64,000 nt of DNA from Botryllus schlosseri. Taxonomy: Eukaryota. The stretch lies in contig CM119372.1 in NCBI GenBank assembly GCA_051294905.1, positions 10,232,001 to 10,296,000 on the forward strand. Reading direction: 5' to 3'. Position 1 is the first letter of the stretch, and the number at the start of each line of letters is the position of its first letter. The notes under the pieces were generated by a model. That model was not told where the DNA came from. It did not search any database and saw only the letters and a list, made by a program, of their open reading frames with translations. This document shows, piece by piece, positions 22,129-49,988 of the stretch. The translations under genes and the position numbers were made by a program.

Positions 22129-24170
22129 CATTTCGTCGAGTAAAATATTCCTCTGTCTCACCGACATAAATACGATAGTGAAGAATTTATTGCATATAAA
22201 AGTTATAAATCCAAGGACGATTCATATTGCTGATAACTGGAAAATCGACCGACTATGCGAAATTCTTGTCGAACTTCTCAGTAACGCAGCATTATCACTT
22301 ATTCGAATTCAAATGTTAAAGTCACGTTTCTATCGATAATTCTCGACTGAATGCAACTCTCGCCAAATACGAAAAATGGTAGTCGCCAACGTATATTCAG
22401 AGACTGTGTTGGGACGCCTCGAGTCATGACTCGAGTCAGACTTGAGTCAACTTTGTCAGATGACTCTGATCTTTTCATTGGATCGCAGTCTTGTGGTGTA
22501 TTGGAATGATGACATTGTTAATAATAAATTGATTGATCGATTGGCGTGAATTTACTCGCGCCACTTTGCAAAAATGACTTGACTTGGCATATCAAAAACG
22601 TTGATTGACTCGTGACTCGAAGCAAAATTTTCGAGTCAATCACAAGTCATCTAAAATCGGCGTTGACACGATCGACACGCTGATATGAGCTGTTCGAGCA
22701 ACCAGTTGCGAAAAATTGCGCAGTCTGGATTTACTGAACCTCATACGGTATGTCACAAATAAATTGACAACAAACAAAGTGATTTAAGCTTACTATCGTA
22801 GACCAGAAGTCTTAGCAGTGTCCTCGCTATTCACATTAACGAACCTCTTGTATGAATAATATAGGCTTACTGTAATTTTATACATTTATATCACTCGTCA
22901 ACAATTGGTGCAGGCTTACACTACACTCTGTCGTATGGATGGTGGATTGTGTCGGATATTGCGTCGTAGTAATTTGTTCAAACGTTCGTATTCTATCATC
23001 TATCATCTATATTTCTGACACTACATGTAACCTTCAGGAGGATTTTTCCTCCTTTTTCGGGTTTTCGAAAATGTCCTCCGAGGACGCCTAAATGTCGTCC
23101 ATTTTGGCAAATCGTCCTCCTTTACAGCTTTTACTGCTAGAATAATGGACAGGTTCAACTGATAATCGGCCTAAATGACGTGAAATCGGTAACACGAACG
23201 TCCGGCTGTTTTCAGTCTTGTTCAACTAACTTTTTCTGATTTGGTAAAAAAACGTCCTCCTTTCCCGATTCCAAAACATAGTAACCCTAATATATATGAG
23301 CCTTACAACGCCCCGTTGAAGATACAATCATCTCGATATTCGATTCGGAAGTAATGGTGGTTTAATGTGTGATTTAATAATCTTGCAAAATGCAATGACT
23401 TGAATCATATGCCCAAACACTGTTCAGGCGATCTGCTGCTTTGTGAACTATCTGAATTATTACAGCGTGATTCAACGCAGTGACCTTGACTACGCTTGAT
23501 TATTCCTGTAAAATTATTATTATTTGCATGGAATAAGATGTTTATTACCGATCAGCAAGTTACACTCTACTACTGGGAAGAACTTGAGTAACGAAATCGC
23601 AATGGAAAATGACGAGTGACATAAACTGGCGGGTAACGAAATGCATAATTCTTTTGAAAACCTAAAATTACACAAATGCTACGCAAGACTAAGGGTGGGC
23701 AATTGTTTTTACCTCGCGGGCCACATTCAGAACATCAATAGATTCGCGGGCCACAATATGACATATTGGGTATTATAGGCCAAGTGATAAAATCTAAAAT
23801 AGTCATACAACGCAATCATTCATTTGATTTTAGAATCTGGAATTTTGATTGGTCACATAAATTAGAGTAAACAAACATAATTGTCTGCTTTGAATACGAC
23901 CCTGACACATTAATGAGATTTCATAATGGCTTTTGCACTAGTTTACGATCAGGCGTTTACAGTACGATACAAAGCATCTACAAATAAGCGCTAAACGAAA
24001 TCAGGTGCTAGCAAGTGTAAAAAATAGACATCGTTCATTCATGTTTGAATCTTCTTCGTGAGTAGGAATATTTGATTCGGACAAGGGAACTGTGATGTTA
24101 CTGTTAAAAATCTCTGGGCCGCACACAAGCTAGAATATAACGAACTTGTACGAACTTTTGATTCTATAAA

Positions 24171-25718
24171 TCAACCTTCACAAATTGCAGACGATTTGAG
24201 GTCTTCAGTTCTCCTCGGAAACTTTTCAAGAAATTGTTCCACTTCCACCGTCGCTTTGACCGAGGCGATGTTCAATCCGGTCCTGCACCATTGACTTGGG
24301 CTATGTATTTTCCCCCTGCGATCCTTGATTTTGAATCCTTTGACTCCCAGTATCGGAATCAATCTACCCTTCCACTCCACTTCGTTTCCCCAGTCTTGCG
24401 GGCATTCGACGCAACATATTCTGTTGACGTGGGTCATGCCTGTCTTTGACAATTCCTCACCGCTTTTCTTGTGCGAATTGGACTTGTACATGGTTTGGAA
24501 GTTATTGTCATCGATAGTGTGATGGTTGCCATTGATCCTGAAACCAATGTATACATTTTGAACCACGGTTTAGTTGAAACTACAACGGGTTAAGTGTAAT
24601 ATTTCTTCCTATCGTTGACTCGAATAAGGTTTTATTCACCTAGTGCAGGCTTGAGCAACCTGCTGCCGTGGAAGGAAATTTGTGCGTTATTCAACTAGTA
24701 TGTGCTGGAGGCTGTCGACATGAAAATTGAATTCCCGAAGTGAATCCGAATTTTTTAGAGATTTAATTGATCTTAAAATTTTCTTTGCGCTATGAGCGAT
24801 TCAATGCGACTTCATTTTCCGAGTTTAACATAGTAGCGTTCTTTACAATCTGAGCCGCATAGTACAGATGCGAGCAGCGGAGGAAAATGATTCGCCCCAT
24901 ATAGAAATACAAACTTGGAACCGTGTGCTCCTCACGAAAGAAATTTATTTGTGGTACGTTTGGTAGATTCCAATATCTGACCACTATACCGACAATCCTG
25001 ATGCGAGGTCAAGAAATAACAGCATGCAACAAAGTAAATAATAACAATTAGCCCACCCGAATATGCATCATCATTTACAACTTGCAAAAAGGTTGGTCAC
25101 TCCTGACCTAGTGTTATGTCAGAAATATAACATACGCATTGGAACAATACTCGATTCAGTGCAATTATTTTGTGAAGAATTTGTGTGCCAATCAGTCACA
25201 CCAATTTGTTTCAAATTTGGTAACGGTGAACTATTATTACAGAGTCGTCCACAGTTAAAGCCAGAAGTGGTCAAATCAGTCATCGTTGATATGATGTTGT
25301 ATATGCCAAATGAATTACAAGTAGAAGAAGAGCTAAACCGCCGTGATTCGTAAAACAGAGTCCCTTTGAAATATTGGCTACATCTCTGCCTTGAGTGCAT
25401 TAAGAAGCGATAACAAGTGACCAAAGAGATAACCAGATGGGAATGGTAAAATTCGTGGAAAATTGTGTAGCTGCAGTCCGAACACCGTGGATTTCTGAGG
25501 ATGATGCACCTTCAACTTCAATTTAAGACCATGTCATATGTAGAGTGCAGTGCCCGTTAAATGACTTACTTGACAATATTCGATACATAGCAAATCGGCG
25601 TGCTGCAATGTCGACAGAGTAGCGTATCCTCATCGGTGTGCAGTTTAGGTTTCGTTGGAGCTTTTCTCTTTCTACTCTCTTCGATTTCCTGGAAAGCGTT
25701 GATTCTTCCCTCCGTTAA
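24171..25718 (-). CDS. RLR C-terminal regulatory (Zn-binding) domain exons
   Basis: TLLCRHCSTPICYVSNIV|KINGNHHTIDDNNF...RICCVECPQDWGNEVEWKGRLIPILGVKGF...SQW; stop TGA at 24173-24171. Confidence 0.92.
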
Positions 25719-28700
25719 CTGGAAAAATGAACGGCAACGCAGTCAAATTATTGTAATTGATATAAAAAAGAAATCGGAGGTTTTAGATTGATAGAATTGT
25801 TTCGGCCCCTTGCTATCTTTTCATTCTATTTCAATTCTGTGCTATTTTGAATTGGCGAAAATGGCAATCAATGATGGATTGATCGAATGATTACCGTAAC
25901 AGGAGAATCAGAAAGAAACCATGGCCATTGCAAGTATGTGTGCAAAAGCAATTAAAATGATATGGGGTGGAATTAACTTTTTGAGCTCTAGTCTAATACC
26001 GACGCAAGTCGAACATGAAATGACAATGGTTTAAGGTCTCGCCTAATACCAACCAAGGTCGAATATGACAATCAACACCTGCAATCCATCAAGATAGTTC
26101 TACTGGATGTTGAAATCATACTGAACGAGGAATACGATACTCACTCAAAATGGAACAACTGTGAGTATATATAGATATAGATAAAGGGTGGAGTCAAAAA
26201 AAGAAAAATTTGAATTTAAAAAAGTGCCTTTGATATTTGGTCCCAAATCTCGAATGAATTACTTCTATCATACTTTCAGGTTCTTGCACCCTCTAGTGGC
26301 CGTGCAATTTCACCGAACGAGCCGAAAATAGCTAATTTTGCCACATCTTCCTACTCGCTTATGCTAGAAAGCTAGTTTTGGGCTCAAAAGCTGCGGAAGC
26401 AACATGTTTCTATTTCACTTCCATAGAACTTTGTCTTGAAAATGTACAGAGAAAAGTTACAAGCGAATTATTGATTTTTAGGCCTCCAATAAAATGTCTG
26501 TTGGTTTTACCAAGTGTGCAATGCCAATTTGCATGTTACAATTTATTACATTGCTGCTTTAACAACAAAATATTGATTGGAGGACCTACGAGTTCATTTA
26601 TAGATCAACCCAGCATAATTTTGATTAGTAGAGAGAATGATTGAATCACGAACTTTCATCATATTACATCATCACAAACCTTTATGATATGAACTTGGTT
26701 AAAAGGGTATCTTCCTGTTCAACTCTACAAAAAACGATAGGCCTAGCGTAGATTGTTCAAAAAGTGAATCAGTTACAGTAAATCAGCTATATAATTTCTA
26801 TATACCTAATACCTGTATGTTTTGTTGAAAATGACGATTTTCATATCATTTGAGACATTGGTAAACTGTTTTATATATTATACATATTATACAAGCTGTT
26901 GTACTCATCTTTGGAATATTCTGGAACTTTGATAGTCAACCACAAGTCTCCCAGTAGGAGTGATGATAATTCATTTTGAAAGTGTTCTGGTTTCTGGTGT
27001 ACCTTGGAGTTGATCATATAATACTCTGGTATAATGGTGTTAAAACTGACTCCTCCATGTGTAGTATCATAGGCCGCTGGCTGTATTAACAGGTCGTTGT
27101 AATATACTCTGCCATGTGTGTGAATTGAACTGACATTGTCTAGAATATGTACAGATTCAGAATTTCATCATGTTCGACTTATAGCAGATTGTGGTTTATC
27201 ATATGTACAAGTATTTGACATACTGTTAACAGGAAAAAGATCCCAAGTCTGTCGGTGCTTGCAATAAGTTGAGCGGTGGATAAACTTTTCAAAGTGTTGA
27301 TGGTCTTCCTTCCGGAATACTCCCAGCTAAGAGACAGTTGTTTGATCACAACTAAAGTGATCAAAGTTGAGCATACCCTCAATCTCTTGTCTTTTAGTTG
27401 GGAGTACCGGTATTCCAAAAGGAAAACCATCAACACTTTGAAAAGTTTATCCACTGTGCAACTTATTGCAAGCAACAACGGACTTGAATCTTTTTCTTGT
27501 TAACATTATGTCAATTACTTGTACTATGATAAACCACAATCTGCTATAAGTCCAACATGATGAAATTCCGAATCCCTACTTATACTAGACAATATCAGTT
27601 CAATTCATACACATAGCAGAGTATAATACAGCGACCTATTCATACAGCCAGCGGCCTATGACACTGCACATGGAGAAGTCAGTTTTGAAACCAATACACC
27701 AGAGTATTATATGATCATTTTCAACTCCAATATACACCAGAAACCAGAACACTTTAAAAATGAGTTATCATCGCTCCTACTGGGAGACTTAAGGTTGACT
27801 ATCAAAGTTCCAGAATATTCCAAGGATGAGTACAGCAGCTTGTACAATATGCATAATATATAAAACAGTTTACCAATGTCTCAATTGATATGAAAATCGT
27901 CATTTTCAACAAATCATACAGGTATTAGGTATAAATAAATTATATATCTGATTTACTGTAACTGATTCACTTTTTGAACAATCTAGGCCCATTGTTTGTT
28001 GTAGAGTTGAACAGGAAGATACCCGTTTCACCAAGTTCATGACAAAGGTTTGTGATGATGCAATATGATGAAAGTTCAATCATTCTCTTTTCCTCATCAA
28101 AATTATGCTAGGTTGATATATAAATCACCCCGTAGGTCCGCCAAACAAGATTTCGTTGCTAAGCCTACAATGTAACAAATTGTAACATGCAAATTGGCAT
28201 TGCAAAATTGGTAAAACCAACCGACATTTTAATGGCGGCCAAGAAATCAGTGATTTGCTTTTAACTTTTTTTCTGTACATTTTCAAGAGAAAGTTCTATG
28301 GTAGTGAGATAGAAACATGATGCTTCCGCAGCTTTTAAGCCCAAAACTAGCTCTCTAGCATAAGCGTATATCAAGATATGGCAAAATTAGCTGTTTTCGG
28401 ATCGTTCGGTGAAATTGCACGGCCACTAGAGGGTGCAGGAACATGAAATTATGATAAGAAGTAATTCATTCGAGATTTGGGACCAAATATCAAAGGCATT
28501 TTTCGAAATTCAAATTTTTCTCTTTTTCAGTCCACCCTAAGATATGGAGAAGATATCTTTGATTATGAATTACAATACTAGTGTATGTGTGTGGTGGATC
28601 GCATAAATAACCATTGAATTTGAATAAGAAGAAAGAAACCTTTTTCTTGTATGCAGCCAGATTTCGATTGCAGAGTTTGTGAACTTTCCCGGTTACTTTT

Positions 28701-31700
28701 TTCATCAAAATCTCCTTTTTCGCCGGGAGACTGTCTCGTGGGTCGGGTTGACCGAGATGAATATGAAGCACTTCGCTGTTGGTTTTTCTGGCACGTCCTA
28801 GGGAAAAAAACGATAGCGTTAGTACCATAGACGTCGGACGCAGGTGTGCTGTGTTCATTTATTTTCTAGTTGAAAGTTTTTCAAAGTTAATGAATGAATC
28901 TGGTCAATAATATCAGTACTTGCAGCAAATATTGTGGGACACATTTGCACTGCTGGGCTTAGATTGCAAGGACAGGACAATCCATATCGAAAGTTTCAAC
29001 CCACATGAGTCGGTCATTTTGGGCCACGTTTTATCGCCGACCATCTTTCTGAAAGCGCACTTCGCAGAGTCGGATGTCGGCCGAAACTTTACATGTCTTG
29101 GTATTTCCCAGTGTGGAGATGGCAGGCCGCGCAATGCTGGTGACTAGTCCGGAACTAGCCTGCTGCACACCCTAGACCAGTGCAATGTTCATTTTAATTG
29201 CGCACTGCGCAGTGCTGACACGGGCTCTGCGCACAGAAAATCTAAGCTGCGGAAGAATATTCGAAGTGGTGACCTTTTTTTTAGTCGTTACGCGCTGTTG
29301 TTCAAGGGACCGCGCGGTGAGTTGGCGAGTGCTCGTAGACTCGTCAAAAATTAGAGGGAACAGTGGACCAGTGGTTCTCAAACTTTTTTAGACACGCCCC
29401 CATTTTTATGATAGTGAAAAATTTTGCAACCCCCTTATCGTCGTATCACAAAATGAAATCAGAATGCCAGCAATCCCAACAGATAGTTTGATGGCATGGA
29501 AGGTTATGACTGTTGATGAGAGAATTCGCAAATGTGAAATTCGGACTATACACAGAGCAATAACTATGAATTGGAGGTAAAAAATTTAAGTTGATCGCAG
29601 CTTCGTGGCCCTTCTCAGATGCTTTCAAGCACCACAGTTTGAGAACTACTGCCCTAGACTGAAGCATCCCAACGGCCTCAAGCAATACTAAGAATATACC
29701 GTTCTCTCATTATTCGGAACACCGTTACATTCAATTCTGTAAATCTGATTCTTTTTCATTATTAGTCGGGAGGGGTACTCATATTTAAAACAAGAAATGT
29801 AACGACACTAAATCACTCGTAGTGCAAAGAAAATTTCAAGTTGAATACCACTGACCCAAAACACACTACAGTATTTATTTTAATTTACGAAAAAATGGGG
29901 GGTCATGGCCGTTTTCACCGCCTGGTTACGAACAACAGTACCAACAGAACTGCTTTACACTGAACGAAGTCGGGTGCGCTGATGTTCATTTAATGGTTTC
30001 AAAGAAAGAAACCGTTACGACTTACCTTTCAATTGGACTTCTTTAATTTCGTTGTTAACGCATTCGACGGTGATCACCAAGCTACAGTTGGGGATGTCGA
30101 CGCCTTCCCCGGCTGCGTCCGGGGTACAGACAAGAACTCTGAACTTTCCTTCGTTGAAGGCCTTGATTGTTTCGCCTTGCTTCTTGTGTGTCATACCTGT
30201 GAGAATATGCGTGAACGTGTCCAATTCTTCACTAGCTTGAAAAAAACAAGAAGGAATGACGGACAAACCGTGCATTCATTCTCAGAATATGTAGAAGTGT
30301 TAGATTTGAGTGACCTTAGCATTTACCTGGCGTGTCACTTCCACTCTTCCGGCCGACTCCAATGTACATTTCACAGCCTAAGTCTCCCAATAGTGGCGTG
30401 GTTTTGACGTATTTCTGCAAAATAAAATCGACCGTACAGAGCGCAGTCTTGAGATTGGATCCCACATCTCCACACTCCCATTGATGACAATCTTAATACG
30501 GAGACGTCCAACCCACAGGAAATTTTTCGAAATGACGTACGTTAACAACTTATCGCCTGTGTAGCTTATGGCAAACTTGGATCCTGATAAATTGGAATAC
30601 ATGGATTTGTTTCTTTCCTATTCAAAGCACTGGACAGAAATCACATTGCGTCAACACCGGGATGTGACGATAGCAATGCTTTGTCGGATTCCCCGGGTCA
30701 GTACCAGTTCTTAGTTCTATAGCAGTAGTTCTCAAAATGGGTGGCGATTTGATCTTAATTAAGACTCTAAAATTGGATATTTCTCCAGCTTACGAGAAAG
30801 GCCTCTAAACATGCGACACATCCAAAATGTATCATAATGACAAAGCTGCTGAGATAACAGGTGCTGCATCTGCAATTCTCTGTGGTATATTCCATCAGTG
30901 TAATTTCGCTACGGTTTCTGGCTACTTTGACAACGTCTGTGTACAAGAAAATAGCGATACCTGAGCATCCGAAAAAGTACTTTCCGTCATACCTTAAAAC
31001 ACTCTGCGTACAACCTCCGAGATACCATCACCATGCACCGAAAGTCTCTGTCTTCCTGATTCTTTTTTTCGATTCTTTCGGTTATTATGTCGAGCATCTT
31101 ATTTTCTGCTTCCTCCACACAATTTTGCAACTCCTTCATTATATCTAGTAGTAAAAAGCATTAAAGTGTGATAATAATTAAGATTATTTCTGCAGGCACA
31201 TGAATTTCAATTGTCAAATTATTGAGAAGTTGATCGTACTGGAAATTTACTCCATTGCAGCGATTCTAAACTCCCTGTGCTCCTTGCTCACAGACAAGCA
31301 TGTTGATCAATTGGTGGGGTGGTGCTCGTGAAACTGCGGTTAGTACACCACAATGTTTTGCCATCAATGACTGCGGATGTGCAATTACGTAAAAAATGAT
31401 GATATAAAAAAATTTAATAATAAAAATAGATTATGCCAGTTCACGAGTACCTAAATCATATAAAGAATACGCCTTTCAAATTTTTACGGTGAAACGGTAT
31501 AAATAACGATAAAAATGCAAAAAAAAAAAAAGAGACATACCCAATAGGATACCGTAAAGTTCCTTTTCCATTTGAGTATTCTTTTGACTGTGCTCAGCAA
31601 ATCGTTCTTCTGCAAATTTTTCAAGCTGTGTGTAAGCATACTTGGGATGGCAATTTTCTTTCATCCTTTGTACATCTATCAGCACCTGTAATACCATACA

Positions 31701-34700
31701 AGTAAAATTTACAAGTTGCGAAAGATCGCCGTACAGCAGCCCTGGTTCTGATAAATCTTTTTGAGTTGTGGGCCGGATACAAATATATGAAAATACCCAA
31801 ATTTTGCCCGTCCAATACATGTCCACCATTGGTGTAGCCCAACCATTCCGGTCCAAGGGCCACATGAGATTTACGAACCATTGGTCAGGCCACTTGAATC
31901 CTGATTACCTTTTTTTAGTCGTCTGATAGGAGCAAACCGAATTAGGTAACGTTGAAAACAAGACTTATATTACTACGATTTAAAACTAATACCAACTATG
32001 CCATGAAAACTCTGCGTGCAACTGTGCAGTGTGCATTCATGTACTGGTTGCACGAAGCGCGAAATTTTTTCAAGGATAATGAATGAATTCGATCATTAAA
32101 AATGTTACTTGCATATATTGCGGGTCGCCTCTGTATACTGCTAGGCTCATTTGGCAAAGACAGGACTATTCGGCACTTGGACATATCAATATCGAAGATT
32201 TCGGCGAACATGCTTCTATCATTTCGTGCAAAGGTTTCATCGTTGGCGATTTTTCTGCGAGTGCAGACGTGAAGTCTCATGTTGGACGACACGTTCTCTC
32301 ATAATTGCGAATATAGTTAGACTCAATTCTGTAAATTGGGCGTACTTTTTATTTTTCAGGTGGGGTACCAATACTAAAAGCAAGAAACGAGTGACAATAA
32401 ATCGCGCAGAGTGCTAAGAAAATATCAAGTCAAATAAGTCTGCCACAAAATAATCTACTTTATGGTCATAATATACGCAGATCTACGAAAAATTTGACTG
32501 GCCCCTGGCTACGTCAATGCGTCGGAATTGATATTTCAGTCATCAACATCCCGTGTTCCGCGGTCAGGTTAATCAAGTTCACAATAAACTACCTGTGTAA
32601 TTTCGTTTTTGATATTATAACCAATTTCTAAAATGACCGCGCGGATGCTCGCGCGTGCTGATTATTCACCGCAAAATTGGACGCCGACATTGACCTAAAC
32701 TAGTTCCCTAGCGACTCCAATTTAAATAGTACTGGCCTATGGTATTGTCGAGTCTAAAATATAATAAGCGCATTTATCTATCCAGTTAGTATGCCAAATT
32801 CTCACCAGAAGGCATTCTGCACAAGACTTGGCATCTCTCCCTAAAGAGTCTTCGCTATCCCCACTGTGGTGTTCAGCGGCATGACGTACTTTGCGACACC
32901 AACTTTGAAACTCCGGATTGAATCGTTCATTTATCCCCTGTGATATCCCCCATGATATCTGCAGCAGCGAAAAATCTAAATTGAAAATATACATTAAATA
33001 TCATCTGAGGTCTGAGCCACATTCAATACTACAAAACGGCACAGCTGAATGCCTACAGCAAATACCCTTGACATGTAGAGCAAAACCTCTTGCCGATGTT
33101 AGAAATTCTAACCATTTTTTTAGTATTTTGTTGATAACTCTTGATAAGAGGCTCATTATTAACATATTATATCTCGCTAAATTTCAGTGAAAAATTACAT
33201 GAGGTACTAGAATACCCAAACAATATTAGTGCAGATGAGTGATCAAAATTATAATAAACCCGTTTACCATAATGTATATTGAGACATAGGGACATACTGG
33301 AATTGGTAAAATCTAAATATATCGAACAATGTAAGGCGTTGAAATTCTGAATCCAACGACATATTACTTATTGGTTTCGCATCCCATTATGGTTGTGTTT
33401 TACAGGTTTGAAAAGCGAAGCAAAATTTTTCAGAAAAACCCGCCAGTGCCATCCATTTAATACTTTTTTATGACCTTCACATTAAGTAAGCTCCTGTTGA
33501 TTCCATTTGAGCTTAAAACTTACTAATATTTCATTCAACAATACATCAACGCAGATATTTTCCTATCGACCATACGCACTGCAGAAAATATAGCTTACTT
33601 GACTAAGATTCAATTATCGATCAACCGCTGGACCGGGAATTAACTGGACAAGTAACGAGAATACTGATCGAGCCATTAACCATACGGTATTATTTGTCTA
33701 TATGTAACATCATTTGCTATAGTAAAAATAATAAATCGGCTAACCTTTTATTGTAGTTAGCAAGTTTAGTATTTTCGCACCACCCTTTAAAAGACAAGCC
33801 TGGAACAGATCTTCTCCGTGTTCGATATAAACAGTTTCTAAAACAAATATTTCATACATGAAACAACGAAACCCAAACTCGAGAATAGCCAGGTGTGGGG
33901 TCAGTAATAGGGTTACCATATTTTAAGAACCGAGAAAGAAAACACGTTATACAAGTGAAACAGGAAGATTTTTACGGAAAATGGTGATCGATCGAATAAA
34001 AAGTTCATTTATCTTAGCCCGTGCCTGAAAACCGGTTTCCAAGGCTAATTTAGGTTTGGTTGAGCATTTTTTAGTCAAATTTAATGGCTTTTCAGCCAAT
34101 ATTACCATTTTTCTCAACAAAACAGGACAATCAGTGCGAAACTAGCTTTCGATGATGAAGACCAGTTATATTCACTTCTAGCGCTCGCCAGCTATAGCAC
34201 TACCAATTATGCTGCTTTAAGATTGCTCAGCAGTAACAGTCACTGCTTAACAAAGTGTAACAACAGATTTTGTGTATCTACCCGTATGTTTACTAGATTA
34301 GTAATCTGGAGTGCGAGCCCTTGACCTAATCTACTGTTTGAAAGTACTTACTTGAATACTTTTCAAACCTGTACTTTTCTATTTCCACTTGAAGTAATTT
34401 TGACATGTCTAGGAAATCACATGACGTTGAATGGAAATTTACCGCGTACCTTCGGGCGCGGGCGGGCAATGATCGTTAAGCTCGTCCAAATTTTTTGGAT
34501 CCGTCACCATCGCCAGTCCACCCGTCGCGTTCATCATACCGAGAACAGCGAATATGTATTTCTCTGCGTCGTCTTCGCTTTCCGCGGCGCCTATGCCTAA
34601 TGTCGCAGTCAAGCCCACGATCTGCGCAAAACACCGGCGTAATCAATATTGCAAAAGTATAGGTACATGGAGGCTGTACTTGAAAGGCAACTGACAACAC

Positions 34701-37700
34701 CTTCAAAATTAGTGATGAAAATCCACATAAAATTTCTCACACCAAAGACCAGGGTTGTAATGACTTGACTCGAGTAATTTTCTTGAAATTGGAAAATGAC
34801 TCTACTAGAATCAATTTGTCTACTGACCTGACTAGACCTGTATTCGAGTCATTGAACATGACTCGACCAAGTCATAAGACTCGACACATTCTGTATCAGG
34901 ACCGATAATTGAAAAATAGGCCCAGAAATTGTCTTTTATCTGTTTGAATTAAAACGTTTAGAGTGAAAAAAATGAGTATAAAATGAATCCGGGGGCTTCG
35001 ATATCACCCAAGAGATTCATATATGTGAGTTGAACCTGATTTGAACTCGATACGGTACAGTAAACACCATGACTTGGACTCGGAATCGAGTCCAAATACT
35101 ATGACTCGAACTTGACCGTTGCTCCGTGACTTGACTCGGTGATGAATTGAAAATGACTCGACTTGACTCGAGTCAAAACTTTAAATGTCAAATTGACTTG
35201 TGACTCAAAATCTTGTGACTTGGTTACAACCCTGCGCCAAAGACCTTGCAATATTCAATAATCATCGATAAGCCGGTACATATATTTCGTAAGCACAATG
35301 GTAGCGTCGTGAAATCGATAACCTTCGAAGATGAAAGAGAACGAAAAAACGAAGAAATCGGTTCTTACGGCGAAAAAAAGTCCAGTAAAAGACCTAATGA
35401 AGAACGTACTGAAAAAGAAGCTGATGGAAAGAGCAAGAAAGAGTGTCAAAAGGGCCGCCGAATGAAGATTAACATTGAAAAACTGTGACATCAGGCACTG
35501 GGCCAAGGCGGGTGCCAAATTAAGAGACTGCAACTGGTCGCTTCGGCATCCTTCTCTGTTCATTACATTGCCTTCTTGTGTCTTGTGTATCGTATAGTAA
35601 ATTGTGTGTCTTGATCGGATGAAAATATATTATCCGACGATTATTCAGATATTAAGATTATTATCTGTATCTATAATCACAGGTTAACAAAATGAAAAAA
35701 AAAAAACATTTTTGAGAGAAGATTAAGGAGTGTTTAAGGTTAATGATTGATAATATGACATTAGTTTTGCCGGTTTGACCGCTAAATAAGCCCAGATTAT
35801 TGTTTCCATCCCTTAAGCATTGCACCTAATGGGAACTGAATCGTAGCTTTTTTTTACTTTTATACTTAACATAAACAGACAATTGATACTCCTCCATTGC
35901 TGTTATTTTCATGTAAATCTGTGAATCTTCCGAATACATTTTTCTCATAATAGTCAAAATGCAGAAATATTATACTGGTCCACAGATATGTTACAGTTCT
36001 AGGTTACAATTATAATTGTAAATCTTGAATGATCTTTTTGATGAATGTTTTTATCTCATCAGTGATAATGCTCTCAGTCTCTATGAATACATGGCTAGCC
36101 CTATGTATATATTCTCTGATGAACCTGAATGTTACGTTGTGGCCGTGGTGTAGCGTAGTGAGGTTCTCTTTGTTCCGCGACGCTTTGCAACACTTTCCTC
36201 ATGATTTCGCAGTACGGATGCGACATTCTCGTGTGATGGCACTCATCGAACACCAGCAAAGTGAAGTCGCAGATGGAGTGAACCTTTTTCTTCTGTAATA
36301 GTAAGACAGGGACATCGTTGCATATTCCGATTGATCAGTATTGCACAGAGGCGGTTCATAAAGTAGGCCTGGTAATACTCCTATATCTACAGAGGTGGTC
36401 AAAGTAGTAATAGTTGGTATTCAAGTAGAAATAGACGTAACGATTTCCAAATAAGTAAAAGATTAGGTATTCCAGGCCTAGTTTTGCCTACATTATCAGG
36501 TAAAAACTGTAGAAGTAGTATAAAATCATAGCCACACAAGTAGAGCAGATAGGCAAACCTTACTTGAGTACTTCAAAAGTGTAGTCCTTCGCTACTGCAA
36601 GTTTGGATTTTGCCAACTTACTCAAGTGGTTATATTTTTAGACAATTTATACTTCACAGTTTTTAGTTTTTCAGGCAAAACTAGACTTGACTCGACTCGA
36701 GTCAATTTGTGTATTGACTCGACATGTACTCGAGTCATTGTGCATGACTCGAACCAAGTCATATGACTCGAGACTAGGACGACCAAGACAGACATTTCAT
36801 TCCAACTTCGAAGAATAGTGAAGTCACCACATTATTGGAATTTCGTCTGTCAGTCCTGATTCTTGGAAAATAGGGCCAGAAATTGTTAGGACTGAGGAAA
36901 ATTACAATATTATGAATGCAAGCCATTCTATATCACTCGAGCTGAGTTGAAAAAGTGGGTTGAACCGAATTGAACTCAATACTGAACAGTGGACATAATG
37001 ACTTGGACTCGGACTCGAGTCACAACACTATGAATCGCACTCGGCCTCATCCCAAAACTAAAAAAGTGAGAGTGACTTGTGACTCGGAACCTTGTGAATT
37101 GGTTACAACCCTGCCTAGAATATTCACTACTTCGACATTCTCATAAGTAGCAATTTACGACATTACTTCTACTTCTACTTGAGAACCAACGATAACTACA
37201 TTGATCAATTCTGGTATTGCGATCAGCAACAGCAACTGACTTCGATGCAGTTGAGAAGAATTTGCGGGGTCATCACAATGACGTCGTGGGAGTATATTGT
37301 TTTGCCGTCGTCTCTATCAAATCCTTCTTCAATTCCACCGTGAAGTAAACTTATCTTGTCCCTAGGCGAGAAAAAGAAAAAAAGAGAGGTTAGGAATGCA
37401 AAGTGTTGAGGCCTTAGAGGCTAAGCTACCACTCGAATTGGAAAATCAGTCATACACCCATAACTTTGAAACCAATAAAGCAAACATTCTGCAATTTGGG
37501 CTAAATGTGCTTTGGTTGGAAATGACCAACGATTTTTTTACTTTTACCGTGTTTCGGTGATTTATTTTGGAAACAAATTGTGTTGTGGCAAAATTTTTCA
37601 CAGTGAATATTTTCTCGATGCCAAGTAGGGATTCGATTCATCATTCTAAAGAACAAGATAGAATGCTTTTTTTTTCATCCCGACAAAGGGTCTTCTGAAA

Positions 37701-40700
37701 AAGAAATCGTTTGTCGAGAAATTGAAAAAACTGATTGTTTTGATTTTGAGGTGCACTGCGTTCTAAATATGATGAGGTCTGAAATTAAAGTTGAAACTGT
37801 GAAATTCATTTTGACAGCAGCCATTTTCCTGAGAAAGCCACCGTCTTCAAAATGCAACTATAGCATTTTCACGAAAAGTACCAATTCAATCCATATATCT
37901 CTGCGGTGTAGAGATCACGGATCACCATTTGCAAAACTTCTGGCACGCATCATTTAAAGGCTGCGCATTATCAGCGTGATCAAGCAGTCACGGGGAGAAG
38001 TAAGATTGGTGAGTTGTGATTTGTCTGTGAGAACACGTGCCAGAAATTTCAAAAATGGTTAAGAAGCGCAGAGGTGACGGTGAGACACAGCAGAGGTAGA
38101 TAGAGTGGAATGACTTTTGGAGGATAATGGCCACTGCCAAACTGTTTTTCAAACTTCCTTCTTTAATTTGAGACAACATCATATTTAAAGCGCAGTGCTC
38201 CTAAAATATACTGAATTCCGGAATGCAAGCACTACAATGTGACCATGATCCACCATCCTCGGTGGGAATGTTTAACTGAATTTTTGTAAATGCACCATTG
38301 CGGTGTGGTAACCGAAAGCGATTTGAATACTCAAGCATTCAGCATACGCTTGAGTCAGTCATCCAAATGGTGTCCAGCGCTTCTACTTCAACAAGCTTTA
38401 TTTTTATTTTCGGTCACAGAGTTTATGAGAGAATTTCCACAGTCATTTAGCATTAACGGTCCAGCAAATCTGATTTTATATATTAAAACATCGACAAGGA
38501 TAATAAAGGTTCACCTGTGGTTAATAAGATACCACTTTAACTTTCGAAATTGCTGTTCAGCTAGTCCACCGGTTGGAGTAAAAAATATGACTTTCGCATT
38601 CGTCTCTTTTGCTAAATGCTCTCTTATAATCGAAGCAGCAACCGTTGTCTTGCCAGAATCTGTCGGATGAGTGGCACAGAAATTGTTACTGATTGCTGCT
38701 TACAATTTTCAACTACACCTAATTATCAAGTAGCGGTTTACCAAAATGATGAACTTCTCAATAAATGTTGAGTAATGTAAGAGAAACAAAAATAGGGATA
38801 TTTCAAATAATACTGACAGAGTTTCTCTTGGCGCAGTATCGCGAAAATAAACATCACTGTAATGTTCAATTTACCTCAAACATGGCGAAATATTGACAGA
38901 AAAACATCGCGAATTGGGATTTCAACGGGAAATTTATGGAGATGAGGCGCAAGAATTGGGAATTATGTCAGGGAATAATACGATGTAGCTTCAATCATAA
39001 ACCTTTTGATACATATACGTTGCACTACCAAAACCGCACTGAATGAGAGACATGACAATATGCTACTTTGACAGCACATTGATATACCATTATGGCATCA
39101 GCGTCCAATTGAATTTTTATATATGCCTTTTCAGATACCGTAGTAGTAATGTTGATTCATAACAAGTTCACAACATACGATTGATTAGGACAAGGTTACT
39201 ATATTAGAAACCTTAAATAGAAGAAACAAACCTCTTTGATTGCATCATATGCAGTGGGACGAATTCATCAACATTCACGGATAACACTATTACTAACTGT
39301 GATTATTAAATCTTAAGTACAAGTCATAATATTCGTCATGGTAATTCATTTACAAAATAAAAATTATCTCACTTGTAGGAGCACAAATCACAACATTTTC
39401 CCCCTGAAGAGCAATCTTGCACAATTCCTCTTGATACTTCCTCAGGACTAAAAGTGCATAATCAAGTGACAGTTCAAATCAAAGTTAATAAACCTATTCT
39501 TACCCTGGGGAGCCTCTTTATCTTCGCTTGAAGAAGGTATTGATTCCGTCGGTATCTGACATTCTAAAGGGAAATAAGATGTCATTTAACTGGAATATCT
39601 CGTGGAGTTTCCAACTCAATTACCTTTTTGTTTTGTTTTCGTGCCGCTTAAATCCTGGAAGAAAATAGTCAATCATAAATATTCAAAGTCGTGGGGATCA
39701 GTGAACTAAGGTATCGTATTTCAAAGCAACCCAAATTCATTCAATTTCAAATGCTATGGCTCAGACTTGAAATTTCAAGTAAAAAGCAATTTAATTCAGT
39801 GTTTAATTTCCTCAACTCAACTATTTGGTTACTGTTACCCTAATCAACCTGCGATATTAGTTATCTCATCTGCTCAAGTCACACAATTTACATACCGTAC
39901 ATAGATATGACGCTGGCAAGTGGCGACTAGAAATTTAACTATTCAGCCAGAGGAATGGACACAGATGTAGTTACAACTGCAACATATTTACTCACAATAT
40001 TGCGGTTAGATGGCACATAACTTGAGGACTTTGAGAGTTGTTCAGCATCCTCCACTATTACCATTTCCTCCATAGCTTCCTCCAAGTTGAAGCATCCTAC
40101 AAAGGGCAACGCAAAAAATTAGCATGGCTTGTGTATAAAAATATTGTGTTGCGACATTGACCTGATAATCATTTTCAGTCTAATTACAGCTAATTGACTT
40201 GTTACCAGACAGCGTCTGTATTTGAAGATATTCAGTCACTTCATTTCCGCCTTTAACATTGCTATCAGTCTCTGTCAATGTCTCCAGTACGAATGAATTT
40301 CATGGATTCTTCTGGACCAGAGTAATCTAATACAGTAGCATTTTGCTAACTAATGTTCTATATAATTGGAAGATATTCCATATGAATAGTCTACAGTAGT
40401 GCTATTGAACCGGTGTACACGATGCGTCAAAATATGCAGGTGCATCACAAACTTGTCACATTAAATCGGGGGTCCTCAAACTGGGGTGCTGCTAGTAAGA
40501 ATGCACATTAGCCACTGCAAATACTACAATATTGGGTTCTTGGTATCATTGCGATGTGTTGGTTTTTATGAAGATAATTTTGACACGTATATCAATTTGA
40601 CTTCTTTACTGCATATTGTCTCAAGCGAATTTTCTCTCCAAGATTGTTGTCAATTATATAGGCTACATACACAATACATAGGTTCATGCCGTTAGTGAAC

Positions 40701-41913
40701 AGGGTGCAGGGATGTGGGAGTTTGACACAACAACTTCGAGGGATTACTAAATCAAGAGGTTGAAGAGCACTGGTCTATGCAACCTTCCACACCTTTCTGT
40801 TTGCAGGAGAGTTACAAACTCTCGAAATATTAGCAGCGATTGTCTATTTTGTTGTGCACATAACTCTTTAAAATGACGGCAAAGTGCTTAAAGGGTACAA
40901 ACTGAAAGAGGTTATGGCGATGTTGGGATAAAATATCTTGTGATTGCGATATAGATTGCGCTTCTATCAACTTTGATCTTTGAAGAAATTTTAGGGGAGT
41001 CACTGGTAGACTACTCAATGTTACAAATATGTGTAGTCAATAAAAACTAACACAATCGAACATGACCCTTCAACTCACCACAGTAGTCTTGGAGAAGTTC
41101 CACGAGGGTGTGATTTTCACATAATCCAGTATCAGACCCGCTATAGTTCAGCATTTTTATAGCTTCAATGAAGTGGTCAATCCAGGTAGGTTTTTTGTAG
41201 ATAAGTTTGTGTAGAAGACTACAGACTGCATTGGAGTTTGACTTCGTCCGTGCAAGATTTTCAATTTCCTCTCTATAATCAACCATAATGGTAGAGCTTG
41301 GTAAGATCAATTTCAGAAATTCTACCTCTCATTCTCATTGAGAAAATGTCTGACCATATATTCCGCTACTTCAACAGCATGAATGCATTCGAGCGTGGGC
41401 ATCAAGTGCCCAAGGATATCTTTGAGTTTATCTATCTTCTGCATTCTTCTGAAGCATTCGAAAAAATCCGTGGTGAAGTGTTCATCTTCCAATAGAGGTA
41501 CAAGCCATTCATATTGCTTCACTGCAAAACGAAATACGTTATTCTTTTCAAACCAATAACATACTTCAGCACAATATCACCTTCTTTTAGAACGTCTATC
41601 AATTCTTGTACAACTTGCACAATACTAACGGATGAGCCGTCGGTACATGATCTCTCAAGGCATTCTACAAATCGTTCCACTCTCGTCCTTCTTGCTTGGT
41701 CATCGCTACCTTTAACGCCTCGTATGTTCATTCCACCTGCAGTTATTGGTTTCATGTCATTTAATATCAATCAGTGTATCTGATACAAGTTTATCATACA
41801 CCACCTGTGTCGAAAATCCTTGTTCCATCGAATAAGTCTATGACGTCTAAAGGCTCTAACCAGTTTTCAAAAATACCCTGAAGTATTTCGAATTTGATTT
41901 TCCGTGCTCCCAT
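24171..41913 (-). CDS. DDX58-like: RIG-I-like receptor (2xCARD, DExH helicase Hel1/Hel2i/Hel2, pincer, Zn-binding CTD), ~1000 aa; one apparent +1 frameshift as given
   Basis: Minus-strand exons: 41913-41805, 41736-41581, 41521-41326, 41272-41079, [40326-40206 cassette], 40096-39996, 39654-39624, 39563-39504, 39447-39373, 38659-38515, 37361-37241, 36292-36125, 34621-34450, 33837-33745, 32958-32806, 31685-31541, 31144-30993, 30414-30327, 30196-30026, 28797-28640, 25718-25570, 24537-24171. Motifs: Q LRKYQEEL, I APTNSGKT, TPQIL, II DECH, III GLTAT, V GEGVDIPNC, VI QLKGRAR, CTD LLCRHC and CVECPQDWG. All junction phases fit except 33745 to 32958. Confidence 0.92.
26185..28538. mobile_element. 2.35-kb palindromic (foldback) non-autonomous DNA element in an RLR intron
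   Basis: Arms at ~26185-27337 and ~27388-28538 are reverse complements along their whole length (ends AGGGTGGA...TCCACCCT; e.g. cctttgatatttggtcccaaatctcgaatgaattact in both). Spacer is ~50 nt. TSD is not cleanly resolved. Confidence 0.93.
28640..33837 (-). CDS. RLR Hel2i/Hel2/pincer exons (motifs IV, V, VI)
   Basis: NPEFQSWCRKV; ENKMLDIITERI...FRCMVMVSRR; GMTHKKQGETIKAFNEGKFRVLVCTPDAAGEGVDIPNCSLVI...EVQLK|GRAR. Confidence 0.88.
29178..29651. mobile_element. Charlie-like hAT MITE (composite)
   Basis: Perfect TSD CCCTAGAC on both sides. The right end ...TTTGAGAACTACTG pairs with an internal CAGTGGTTCTCAAACT at 29369. Confidence 0.75.
31850..32575 (+). repeat. Dispersed repeat, probably a hAT-derived left end
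   Basis: Colinear with 61648-62370 (agggccac..gagatttacgaacc...ggctacg..atgcgtcggaa); fragment at ~45200-45385. Confidence 0.8.
34450..39447 (-). CDS. RLR Hel1 exons (motifs Q, I, Ia, Ib, II, III)
   Basis: VLRKYQEELCKIALQGENVVICAPT|NSGKTTVAASII...FFTPTGGLAEQQ; DVIVMTPQILLN; FTLLVFDECHHT; IVGLTATLG. Confidence 0.93.
34750..35234. mobile_element. hAT-type MITE rich in gacttgactcg repeats
   Basis: TIR CAGGGTTGTAA...TTACAACCCTG; ccaaagac flanks both sides, offset by 2 nt on the right. Related copies at ~36685-37113 and ~22420-22645. Confidence 0.82.
36390..37213. mobile_element. MITE (CAGAGGTGGTCAAAGTAG ends) with a nested copy of the gacttgactcg family
   Basis: Ends CAGAGGTGGTCAAAGTAGT...ACTACATTGATCAATTCTG. 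The tacttctacttctacttgag body is shared with ~6870-7085 and ~56408-56632, and is interrupted at ~36685-37113 by the 34750 family. Confidence 0.65.
41079..41913 (-). CDS. RLR exons 1-4: tandem CARD-like domains
   Basis: MGARKIKFEILQGIFENWLEPLDVIDLFDGTRIFDT|GGMNIRG...ELIDVLKE|VKQYEWLVPLL...|REEIENLARTKSNSNAVCSLLHKLIYKKPTWIDHFIEAIKML. Helical CARD pattern including W..F..A; introns of 68, 59 and 53 nt. Confidence 0.8.
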
Positions 41914-42094: not shown

Positions 42095-45020
42095 GGTTGG
42101 TTCGATTGGTTTGAAATAAGGACAAATATGTTAGAAATGAGGCGAGTCTCATGTCAGAAATGAGGATAGTCATGTCAGAAATGAGGATAGTCATGTCAGA
42201 AATAAGGATAGTCGCTATATTCACTATAAAGTCAGTTACAGTACCAGGCACGACTTTCTAGTGCTGCTAACCCAGTCCGAACACATCCCAGACATGATGT
42301 CCAAACACGCCCCAGACACGATGTCCGGGTATCAACACAGGCCGAACACGCCCAAGACACCATGTCCGAATGGCAACACAGGCCGAAAACACCCCAGACA
42401 TGATGTCTGAACACGCCCCAGATACGATGTCCGGGTATCAACACGGGCCGAACACGCCAAAAAGACACCATGTCCGAATGGCAACACGGACCGAACACGC
42501 CCCAGACACGATGTCCGAGTGTCAACTCAGATCCGAAAACAACCCAGACACCATGCTCGAATGGCCGAACATGCCCCAGACACGATGTCCGATTGGCAGC
42601 ACAGGCCGAACACACCACAGACATGATGTCCAAACACGCCCCAGATACGATGTCCGGGTATCAACACAGGCCGAACACGCCCTAGACATCATGTGTGAAT
42701 GGCAGTACAGGCCGAACACCCCCCCCCCAGACATGATGTCCGAACACGCCCCAGATACGTTGTCCGGGTATCAACACGGCCGAACACACCCAAGACACCA
42801 TGTCCGAATGGCAGCACAGGCCGAACACACCCCAGACATAATGTGTGAATGGCATCATAGGCCGACCACATCCCAGACATGATGTCCAAAGTCGCCGCAG
42901 ACACAATGTCCGAACACAGCCGAGACACCATGTTTGAATGGCAGTACAGGCCGAACACCCCCCCCCCCAAGACATGATGTCCGAACACGCCCCAGATACG
43001 TTGTCCGGGTATCAACACGGCCGAACACACCCAAGACACCATGTCCGAATGGCAGCACAGGCCGAACACACCCCAGACATAATGTGTGAATGGCATCATA
43101 GGCCGACCACATCCCAGACATGATGTCCAAAGTCGCCGCAGACACAATGTCCGAACACAGCCGAGACACCATGTTTGAATGGCAGTACAGGCCGAACACC
43201 CCCCCCCCCCAAGACATGATGTCCGAACACGCCCCAGATACGTTGTCCGGGTATCAACACGGCCGAACACACCCAAGACACCATGTCCGATTGGCAGCAC
43301 AGGCCGAACACACCCCAGACATAATGTGTGAATGGCATCATAGGCCGACCACATCCCAGACATGATGTCCAAAGTCGCCGCAGACACAATGTCCGAACAC
43401 AGCCGAGACACCATGTTTGAATGGCAGTACAGGCCGAACACCCCCCCCCCCCCAGACATGATGTCCGAACACGCCCCAGATACGTTGTCCGGGTATCAAC
43501 ACGGCCGAACACACCCAAGACACCATGTCCGAATGGCAGCACATGCCGAACACACCCCAGACATAATGTGTGAATGGCATTAGGCCGACCACATCCCAGA
43601 CATGATGTCCGAAGTCGCCGCAGACACAATGTCCGAACACAGCCGAGACACCATGTTTGAATGGCCGAACATGCCCCAGACACGATGTCCGATTGGCAGC
43701 ACAGGCCGAACACACCCCAGACATGATGTCCAAACACGCTCCAGATACGATGATCGGGTATCAACACAGGCCGAACACGCCCAAGACACCATGTCCGAAT
43801 GGCAACACAGGCCGATAACACCCCAGACATGATGTCCGAATACGCCCCAGATACGAAGTCCGGGTATCAACACGGGCCGAACACGCCCAAGACACCATGT
43901 CCGAATGGCAACACAGGCCGAACACACCCCAGACACGATGTCCAAGTGTCAACTCAGATCCGAAAACAACCCAGACACCATGCTTGAATGGCCGAGCATG
44001 CCCCAGACACGATGTCCGATTGGCAGCACAGGCCGAACACAACCCATACATGGTGTCGGAACGCCCCAGACACGATGTGCTATTGGCAACACAGTCCCAA
44101 CGCCCCCCAGACACGATGTTAATAAGGTTTGTCGTGTTTGAAATAAGGTCAGTCTAGTGTTTGAAATAAGGATAGTCATGTTAGGAATAAGGATAGCCAT
44201 GTTTGATATAGGGATAGTCATGTTTGAAATAAGGATAGTCTCATGTCAGAAATGAGGATAGTCATGTCAGAAATGAGGATAGTCATGTCAGAAATAAGGA
44301 TAGTCTCTATATTCACTATAAAGTCAGTTACAGTACCAGGCACGACTTTCTAGTGCTAACCCAGTCCGAACACATCCCACACATGATGTCCGAACACGCG
44401 CCAGATACGATGTCCGGGTATCAACACGGCCGAACACACCCAAGACACCATGTCCGAATGGCAGCACAGGCCGAACACACCCCAGACATAATGTGTGAAT
44501 GGCATTAGGCCGACCACATCCCAGACATGATGTCCGAAGTCGCCGCAGACACAATGTCCGAACACAGCCGAGACACCATGTTTGAATGGCCGAACATGCC
44601 CCAGACACGATGTCCGATTGGCAGCACAGGCCGAACACACCCCAGACATGATGTCCAAACACGCTCCAGATACGATGATCGGGTATCAACACAGGCCGAA
44701 CACGCCCAAGACACCATGTCCGAATGGCAACACAGGCCGATAACACCCCAGACATGATGTCCGAATACGCCCCAGATACGATGTCCGGGTATCAATACAG
44801 GCCGAACACGCCCGAGACACCATGTCCGAATGGCATCACAGGCCGAACACACCCCAGACATGATGTCCAAGCACGCCCCAGACACGATGTCCAAGTATCA
44901 ATACAGGCCGAACACACCCAAGACACCATGTCCGAATGGCAACACGGACCGAACACGCCCCAGACACGATGTCCGAGTATCAACACAGGCCGAATACGCT
45001 TAAGACACGATGTCCGAATG
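42095..45020 (+). repeat. Left arm: complex minisatellite
   Basis: 21-bp units catgtcagaaatgaggatagt, then GC-rich degenerate units (gaacacgccccagacatgatgtcc / gaatggcagcacaggcc). A ~242-bp higher-order period is marked by poly-C tracts near 42720, 42960, 43200 and 43441. The module restarts at ~44125. Confidence 0.95.
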
Positions 45021-46215
45021 AATAATTGACCAGGATAATGGAATTTTATCGAGCGATCATTCGGAACAATGCCGATTTCCAGATTTCAGACTTGGACGGC
45101 TATATTTATTGGTGGTTCCGTTGACCTGCCAGCTTTAAAATTGTATTTGCGAAATAGCTTTCGATCAAGATCGGTATTGGTAAATTGTAGTTTCATTCAA
45201 AGTTAATTTATGAGTTCGGCCGATACTAATGTCCCTTGCATTTATTGCGGGTCGCCTGTGTTTGCCGCTGGGTTTATTTGACAAGGACAGGAATATTTGG
45301 GGCTCACACATATAAATATCGAAGACTCCTGGTTACACGTCTATAATTTCAAATGCCGATGCGAAGTTGGATGTTGGACGCACTGGCGTAGCCAGGGGGG
45401 ACGAAAGGGGCAATTTTTCACATCAGTATAACAGCTTTCGTTGAAATTCTTTTAATTTCAACTTCGGGCCACTCTGTGCATGCCGCTGACAGCATAAATA
45501 AATCAACACTCACTAAACGAGCAGGCACCTTGCCGATCGCAAAAAATACTTACTTTGTTAGGCCTACAAAAGTTTGCTCGAAATATCAAGCTTTCCGTTT
45601 GTGAATATTTTGTGACTCTCTGCTGTGAGCTTGGCCCGCAATCACACAACATTACGAGCGAAATACGCTATCATGTAAGTAGTGAGCGAATGCGATGTTT
45701 ATTCAACCAATCAATAAGATATAAAAAGAATACATCTTTGTCTAATGTAAAAAATCCAGCAGGCGTACGGGATCCCTCTTGATTCTATATGTTTATTATA
45801 TTATAAAAATCAAATCCGTGCGATCGGGGTTATTGTTATGTTGGCTATTGTATAACTTGTTAATGGGGTAATATATAAACCCGTTTAAAACTGTTCAATA
45901 TCAATGTAGCAATAGTCAGACGCCGAATACATTGTCCGGTCTGGCATAGACCGTTAAGGCGGAAGCTTATATTCCCAAACAAGTTCTCGTCGAAATCTTT
46001 GGCAAAGCGACACAAGATCTTGATTTTATGGGATTATTATATCATTTAATTTAATTGCTTTGCTTGATGACACATTTAGTAACGTTCAAATAATCAGCAT
46101 GTAGGCCTACGTCAGCATTGTGGCATATGTGACCTGAGTCGTCGCCATGTATCGTGTACGACGTACGTACATTAATATATCAATTCACCGAAATGCAGAG
46201 TTGCAATTGGCAATA

Positions 46216-46392
46216 TGACGTCACTTGACGGCATAGTTTCACTTTCGCGTTCACACAGAACATTTCAAAAAGGTTCAAGTTCACACGAACCTGAACCTTT
46301 TAGAGATTCATCCCATCCCTAGTACGTGGGGAATCCGATTTCTAGTTCCTTGGCGATTTTGAGGGTTTTCTGGTGCCCTGGCTCTTATAAAA
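46216..46392. promoter_or_regulatory. CRE/ATF + ISRE/IRF-E + kappaB-like motif cluster
   Basis: TGACGTCA at 46216-46223, TGACG half-site at 46226-46230, AGTTTCACTTTC (reverse complement GAAAGTGAAACT) at 46235-46246, GGGGAATCC at 46328-46336, TATAAAA at 46386-46392. Confidence 0.55.
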
Positions 46393-47989
46393 TATAATAC
46401 AAATACATGTGTGTTGAATGGCACTGTTTTAGTGCTATAGGTCTATATACCCGATGGCATCAATGTTCTCTAGCTTCTTCGGTATATTCCAGTGATTCTC
46501 AACCTTTTTTCCACCGCCGTCTCCTCTCAGACATTCATGGTTGCCGCTTCCATATTTAAGCATTGTACTAAAGACGATGCGGTAAAGGTCGAAGTATGGT
46601 CGCTCATGCCGGGTTTTGACTTGACCTAATTGGAATTATTTCGCTCATGAATCGCGCCCAATGACCACTCAACTATTTATCGAACTAATAATTGTATGTA
46701 CTATTTTCGGGATAAAATCAAGGTTGATATTCCGAGCGCAGGGTAGGGGCCATACCTATCAGATCGAACCCAATGTATAGTCTATATAGCGGCTAGGATA
46801 TAGCTTAGGTTCTACCCGACAGGTAAAGCCCAGGGGCTCTCAGCCTATTCTTGGTCGTAGGCCTTTTCCGGTTTGAAAATGTGTTGTGGCCCACCTCTTA
46901 TCTTAGAGTTATAATCCTGTTGATTGCGTGGTAATCGACAGCGCCGATATGCATATTTCTCTAAAATATGCGCATATTTCTTTACTGATGAGTGATGATA
47001 TTAAAATCTAGGCATAATGGGGCATGAAATCGCGCGAAGCGTGACAGAATTTTCCAAGTTGAATAAATATCCACTAACAAACGACCAACAAAATAATATT
47101 GGACCCCTTCGAGCTCCCAATTGGGGGTTTCGGTGTGGCAGTTACAGCCCTCGTAGATCATAGGCTAGAAGTCCTGAATATTATTCTGATCGCCCGCTGC
47201 TCCATTCGCATCGCGAAACACGATGATCAGATCCCGGCATCCACTGTGTAATTGGGACTTTAGTTCCACTGTTGTGTGGAATAATGATCATTCTGGACCA
47301 GCTTCGAACAATACATTGGTGAATGGGGTACTATACAGCAAAGTATCTGCGATTTCAGCTTTAATCCAATGATAAAATCAATTCATACGACTCTTACACA
47401 AATATCAGTGCATGGTCGCGGTGCTGTATCATTTCTGACTCAAAAGGTCCCCGTAATGTAGAGAAACCTGAATCGTGATTTATTAATACAAATAAAATAC
47501 AACAAATTCAAAAGTCCGCGTTTACAGTTGAATCTCTGGAATTCATCAATCCTCACAACGCATACATACGGTTAACGATATATTACGACTCAAGTAAATG
47601 GAGCATAGAAATAAGTGAACTTGTATCGTCGTTACCGCGACTGTTTTAGCAGCGGTTCATAAGTGCATTGAACCAACCAATCATCATCGTCAATTTCATT
47701 GTTCGCGATCAAAGTGTTGCTCTACTTATTCTTGCTAGCTTGGTAACAATATGTTCAAGTGAAAAGCAAAGCCGGTGGCCCGCGAGCATTTCGAATGTTT
47801 GAATCCGGCCCGCGACGTAATTTTGAGTTTGACAGCCCTGGTTTACAACGCAGGATATTTGTGGCCAGATAGTTATTGTTTTTAGTTGCTTGCTGATGCT
47901 GTATAGTAAAGCGATGCAGTGAAGGAATATGAAATTGCTATAGTTGTTGAAATTTACGGACGGGTGATCAGAATAGAACCCCGAGGAAG

Positions 47990-48360: not shown

Positions 48361-48438
48361 ATGGAGCTGAATTTGATGAAATACTTCAAATGGAAGCGTT
48401 GAACGCACTCGCATGGTGTCGACTCCTACAGACTACAC

Positions 48439-49776: not shown

Positions 49777-49988
49777 GACTACACAAATATTTGCATGACA
49801 ACGCATGATCTTGAGATTTCTCCTAGCTAGCATTCATGAATATTCTTGTTTGCAATACATTTGATTACATTCCAAAACATACTTGTGCTTTATTGCTTGC
49901 GACACGTCAAAATGAGGTAAAATGTGCATTATGGCTGTATTAAGTAAGTTCAACCTTATAAATTTGCGACACGAGATAGCGAAGTTAT

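Follow-up and report, generated by a model that had tools for sequence, protein, structure and literature searches.

A 2.35-kb palindrome fills most of one intron of a gene for a RIG-I-like receptor (RLR) in Botryllus schlosseri. We consider it highly probable that this palindrome belongs to a repeated family of gene-less elements, as a copy that has since decayed; most likely it is a non-autonomous fold-back DNA transposon, which inserted into the RLR intron by chance and is likely spliced out with the intron. The analysis covered a 64,000-nucleotide window (contig CM119372.1 of assembly GCA_051294905.1, positions 10,232,001 to 10,296,000 of the forward strand), and all coordinates below are positions in this window.

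Anatomy of the palindrome

Self-BLAST and global alignment resolved the palindrome into two long arms and a short spacer, as follows.

26185..27336, unstranded: left arm (long terminal inverted repeat), 1152 nt, starting AGGGTGG
27388..28538, unstranded: right arm, 1151 nt, with the final letters CCACCCT
27337..27387, unstranded: spacer, 51 nt, with two small hairpins and a predicted Y-shaped apex
27341..27365, unstranded: mini-hairpin TTTGATCAC-N7-GTGATCAAA, a perfect 9-bp stem with a 7-nt loop
27367..27382, unstranded: second mini-hairpin, a 5-bp stem with a 6-nt loop

When one arm was aligned globally with the reverse complement of the other, we counted 1025 matches, 111 mismatches and 31 gap columns in 10 events. 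This corresponded to an arm-arm identity of 90.2% (87.8% with gaps counted) and a K2P distance of 0.105; BLAST returned the self-hit of the palindrome at 86.8% identity. The original prediction, made by eye, had described arms of this kind around a spacer holding the first mini-hairpin, and its coordinates proved right. Identity was fairly uniform along the arms, ranging from 0.84 to 0.95 per tenth of their length. The arms contained no tandem repeats, TRF reported no array between 21061 and 42113, and Rfam gave no match to the element at E values up to 0.5.

The duplex between the arms included 11 perfect runs of at least 21 bp, the longest of 41 bp. RNA folding of the inner 721 nt gave −484 kcal/mol (z = −45.9 against 20 shuffles), and the minimum free energy structure of the whole intron was predicted to pair arm with arm along their full length. 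As had been proposed, the pre-mRNA is thus predicted to be able to form an imperfect duplex of ~1.15 kb. In the predicted fold, the apex at 27341-27382 was a Y-shaped junction with two small ears, a shape that we take to be reminiscent of hairpin telomeres or of a fold-back priming site. When the spacer was shuffled 20000 times by mononucleotide, only 20 of the shuffles produced a stem of at least 9 bp.

Two further features of the element were observed. A CTCF-like motif lies ~100 nt inside each end (26286-26299, minus strand; 28423-28436, plus strand); the window held 3 matches against 0.08 expected, two of them being this mirrored pair. The observed/expected ratio of CpG was 0.54 in 26185-28538 compared with 1.04 across the window, and this low value may come from methylation-driven decay.

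The host gene and its intron

The palindrome lies within a gene on the minus strand, whose relevant parts are listed here.

24171..41760, minus strand: RLR gene (CARD-like region, DECH helicase and C-terminal domain, CTD); its extent and 5' end are approximate
30026..30196, minus strand: RLR exon with helicase motifs V-VI (PF00271, E 3.9e-12)
28640..28797, minus strand: RLR exon, 158 nt, with the end of motif VI and the pincer helix
25719..28639, minus strand: host intron, 2921 nt, GT..AG
25570..25718, minus strand: RLR exon, 149 nt, with the pincer end and the first CxxC of the CTD
24171..24537, minus strand: last coding exon, RIG-I C-terminal domain (PF11648, E 1.6e-12; PDB matches)

The Pfam matches to RIG-I_C-RD and Helicase_C were both above the cut-off, and in PDB the CTD exon matched chains of LGP2, RIG-I and MDA5. 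The DECH motif was present as well. CARD_2 was matched weakly (E 2.2e-4, below the cut-off). The six exons from 31144 to the stop at 24171 formed a single open frame across the host intron; a frame test with a seventh, upstream exon gave 2 stops, with that exon's border one base off. Judged from these helicase, Helicase_C, pincer and CTD features, together with a weak CARD match, the host gene is a RIG-I-like receptor, in agreement with the original prediction. Searches with exon queries found no full-length relatives of the RLR, which is weak evidence.

The palindrome starts 101 nt past the donor and ends 466 nt short of the acceptor, and so fills most of the intron, as had been described. 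Its folding had been predicted to shorten the effective intron from ~2.9 to ~0.6 kb. The arithmetic was sound: the intron measured 2921 nt in full and about 567 nt without the palindrome.

Helicase motifs IV-VI of the RLR (30026-31144, minus strand) read FRCMVMVSRR, TPDAAGEGVDI and QLKGRAR. They diverge from the helicase consensus, which suggests a fast-evolving RLR paralogue. Another intron of the gene contains an inverted repeat of 86 bp with 78% identity at 37745-38206.

The element is present in many copies and in a second sample

Four of 24 listed sequencing runs, two of DNA contigs (X5 and X6) and two of RNA (X22 and X24), were aligned to positions 23800-30700 at 85% likeness. Copies were estimated from summed contig depth, which is a rough proxy that gives the order of magnitude only and differs from true copy number. 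The depth of X5 was 77 in unique bins. In seven inner bins of the element, it was 1420-8476, i.e. about 18-110x single-copy with a mean of about 56x, and three of the four outer bins reached 43,500-53,000 (about 560-690x), the fourth about 65x. The X6 profile over the palindrome had the same shape. An X5 contig joining arm and spacer had a depth of 1250, about 16x single-copy, which implies that this apex is shared by some 16 copies or more. One contig skipped 26449-28169, as expected of an internally deleted derivative. As an order of magnitude only, these depths put the number of long copies in the tens and that of elements with common ends in the hundreds. By the same proxy, X5 and X6 both indicated the dispersed multiple copies that are expected of a fold-back transposon.

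The X6 contigs, which came from another sample and another study with a different organism code, bridged both insertion junctions (25598-26248 with 5 differences and 28474-29288 with 13 differences). The insertion is therefore not private to the assembly. No empty allele was found among the 15 of 225 joints listed, and the shared insertion could be fixed. The original prediction had named a high-copy, polymorphic insertion without effect on expression as part of the outcome that would speak against it. The depth bore out the multi-copy part. The polymorphic part was not borne out, as the second sample carried both junctions, which fits an old insertion without demonstrating selection.

The palindrome might instead be a one-off, non-mobile product, either a local inverted duplication or an assembly artefact. 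The target-site duplication (TSD) is ambiguous, as described below, and no second copy of the 2.35-kb palindrome was found within the 64-kb window, both of which would agree with such an origin. However, a 10% difference between the arms is not expected from a fold-back assembly error, and neither the bridging of both junctions in another sample nor the multi-copy depth at the spacer-arm junction in X5 fits it. We regard this explanation as extremely unlikely.

Short repeats in neighbouring intron sequence, at 24700-25150 and 29200-29600, had a far higher copy, with X5 depth up to 546,000. They were the source of most RNA reads on 23800-30700.

This copy has decayed without a bias for RNA pairing

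Variant sites were taken from the 40 best-supported of 924 rows. Fourteen of the 40 lay within the element, all but one of them (13) in the arms and the last in the spacer. For 12 of these 13 listed arm sites, other copies had the base found in the opposite arm of the present copy. These results indicated that the arms of the family are more symmetric and that this copy has decayed. At the remaining arm site, 27465, the two arms had the same base and the family another; this suggests either a subfamily or conversion between the arms. The indels between the arms coincided with 7 of the 9 element indels listed, with shares of 12-100%. The simplest reading is that the arms were near-identical at insertion and then drifted by about 5% each.

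Selection for an RNA stem is expected to favour changes that preserve G-U pairs on the transcribed strand. Among the arm mismatches, transitions giving G-U numbered 31 on the transcribed strand and 27 on the other (p = 0.69), and 53 were transversions. The bias expected from selection for RNA pairing was thus absent from this copy.

Ends, target site and superfamily

The inverted repeats extend to both termini and enclose a short spacer, as in fold-back transposons. The candidate TSDs in the flanks are the following.

26179..26184, plus strand: left flank, AGATA at 26179-26183 or TAA at 26182-26184
28538..28544, plus strand: right flank, TAA at 28538-28540 (then G) or AGATA at 28540-28544

The TAA reading needs one base of asymmetry, and the AGATA reading needs one terminal mismatch. 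The TA-rich flanks permit TAA, AGATA and 2-bp readings, the longest candidate being 5 bp.

None of the 12 arm frames had any Pfam match, and no transposase remnant was found in them. A phmmer search with one arm frame against 1.84 billion proteins returned only a repeat-inflated archaeal match, an SBBP-repeat protein whose score was built up from several repeats that all aligned to a single 31-residue stretch. Other candidates were rejected too. A reading as an NCLDV capsid had the top rank in the ESM Atlas (0.96), but its recognition value of 1852 was below the 2300 mark, and Pfam, which includes Capsid_N, gave no match. Pattern searches gave 0 and 1 metagenome matches and 2 viral matches, with alignments of only 19-29 nt that we attribute to chance, and a viral match to a 97-aa arm frame covered only 16 residues. 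No genuine relative of the element was found in the metagenome and viral contigs scanned.

We compared the ends with those of known superfamilies. PIF/Harbinger elements have a TWA TSD and terminal inverted repeats (TIRs) that start with A or G and are 5-1042 bp long, and NuwaII, with a C|TNA|G target, is present in a tunicate (PMC4482050). The palindrome resembles PIF/Harbinger and NuwaII (PHIS) in that its TIR starts AGG/GGG and TAA is one possible reading of its TSD. It differs in that an asymmetry of one base is needed for TAA to flank both ends, in that its arms of 1151 nt exceed the reported range, and in that no transposase or Myb/SANT ORF was found in it. PHIS/Harbinger-like ends are our leading guess for the superfamily.

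Tc4 duplicates TNA within CTNAG, and its consensus sequences are reported only from nematodes, arthropods and tardigrades (PMC11071193). It is termed a fold-back element in the title of a 1991 paper by Yuan et al., to which PMC6829131 and PMC11071193 refer. Compared by description, Tc4 of C. elegans is likewise a gene-less, nearly all-palindromic DNA element of kilobase size, whereas the arms of the palindrome here are 10% diverged. Of the C|TNA|G target shared by NuwaII and Tc4, the right flank has TAA-G but the left flank lacks the C. Foldbacks of the FB/Galileo type have arms of tandem subrepeats and a 7-9-bp TSD. The palindrome shares with the Drosophila FB/Galileo elements its long inverted arms and, in this copy, the lack of coding capacity, but its arms are free of tandem repeats and it has no 7-9-bp TSD. 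Palindromes with Maverick/Polinton ends have a 6-bp TSD and AG/AGT-repeat termini; here the termini are AGGGTGG and there is no 6-bp duplication. Given an ambiguous TSD and searches that found no autonomous partner, we only infer the superfamily and even cut-and-paste mobility.

RNA evidence and possible effects on the host gene

The RNA reads examined, about 6% of X24 and 3% of X22, were shallow and of low power. The summed X24 depth in bins of the CTD exon was about 2.6-5, and 5 of 9 X22 reads ended at 28799, beside the acceptor of the pincer exon. The RNA reads on exons, together with these read ends, indicated that the RLR gene is expressed. Depth in both shallow runs was zero in the repeat-free intron bins, 25186-25416 in the next intron and 25879-26109 in the host intron. 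No spliced read across the host intron was seen among the 15 of 225 joints listed. A>G/T>C changes were not in excess over C>T/G>A changes in X24 (63 vs 68) or X22 (102 vs 111), at low power, and the DNA contigs gave 148 vs 147 and 117 vs 123. These tallies span the whole 6.9-kb stretch, come mostly from reads of other repeat copies, and neither show nor exclude editing.

In X22, which is a single-cell run, 158 and 81 reads had loose ends at 26971-27011. By eye, about 20 of the 30 loose letters before 26971 still agreed with the arm. These reads come from a diverged relative of the arm interior that is transcribed elsewhere and may be the parent element or a donor gene.

The hairpin could modestly alter splicing or transcription of the host gene, by bridging the intron or hindering the donor, as a putative side effect without dsRNA signalling. 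Pairing would put donor and acceptor about 0.57 kb apart, skipping of the next 149-nt exon would shift the frame with loss of the CTD, and a new exon of Ciona TCF derives in part from a MITE (PMC12865960). However, the arm-arm duplex contains neither splice site, and a simple pattern scan of the minus strand found no strong donor- or acceptor-like match in the intron. We consider such an effect improbable. The pattern scan found one AATAAA in the host intron, at 26547 on the minus strand.

The original prediction also proposed a possible feedback loop, each induced RLR transcript being a potential self-ligand or siRNA source. In a fuller version of this idea, an old palindromic transposon would have been retained in the RLR intron as an exapted autoregulatory element; its transcribed hairpin would escape as a retained intron, a stable lariat or siRNAs and feed back on RLR signalling or expression. 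The induced pre-mRNA would thereby give kilobase dsRNA that tunes the sensor's own activity. We judge both the escape with feedback and the tuning to be very improbable. The very stable predicted duplex and the presence of the insertion in a second sample agree with the proposal. So does the report that, in C. elegans without ADARs, siRNAs arise via DRH-1/RIG-I from palindromic repeats inside genes (PMC7084138). However, the element belongs to a multi-copy family, and its arms have decayed without a strand-specific G-U bias and with 10 indels between them. The unique intron bins had zero RNA depth and there was no A>G/T>C excess, both at low power. In human cells, intronic dsRNAs are for the most part kept out of the MDA5-immunogenic set because they are removed by splicing (PMC12695637). 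A feedback loop is unlikely because cytosolic sensors normally do not meet intronic dsRNA. The functional part of the original prediction was thus not supported, and nothing that we found shows that the hairpin regulates the RLR gene.

Related RNA structures are known. In C. elegans, most editing clusters are found in DNA transposons, some of them self-palindromic and thus ADAR substrates, and introns are enriched in such clusters (PMC4317174). The source on human cells states that in vitro protection assays found mostly intronic dsRNAs and that intronic inverted Alu pairs undergo nuclear editing with no MDA5 immunogenicity (PMC12695637). The palindrome resembles mammalian intronic inverted Alu pairs in that both would give long, imperfect, intramolecular dsRNA in pre-mRNA, built from repeats; it differs in that one self-palindromic DNA element supplies both the ~1.15-kb stem and the 51-nt loop, in place of two SINE copies.

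A model for the palindrome and its neighbourhood

The decayed fold-back transposon, which we prefer, may have originated in a copy-back event at one end of a parent transposon, and it would have been mobilised by a transposase supplied in trans. It probably inserted by chance into the RLR intron with its arms near-identical at that time. The pre-mRNA would then fold transiently into a hairpin, which may be edited by ADAR in the nucleus, and the hairpin would be degraded with the lariat before reaching a cytosolic sensor.

A second foldback of 10.2 kb is located at 42095-52269, with satellite-like arms made of 21-, 41- and 106-bp units. Its outer 634 nt are 99% complementary, indicating that it is young, and it lies about 0.3 kb upstream of the first CARD-region frame of the RLR, whose promoter it could affect. 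Since this second foldback sits just upstream of the same RLR gene, no special cause is required for a palindrome in the RLR intron. The window also contains a GATA-family transcription factor gene (3174-9872, plus strand), whose nearest named match is from Styela clava at 32% identity.

If the feedback loop were true, a dsRNA sensor would use its own transcript as a ligand or siRNA source, for which a non-exhaustive search by title and abstract opening found no published account; it would be a transposon-made autoregulatory loop in the antiviral immunity of an invertebrate chordate. As a decayed transposon copy, the palindrome is of little importance and adds one more fold-back transposon. 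It would be of modest use as an arm-divergence clock, and likewise as a clean natural experiment on the fate of kilobase-long intronic hairpins in an invertebrate chordate.
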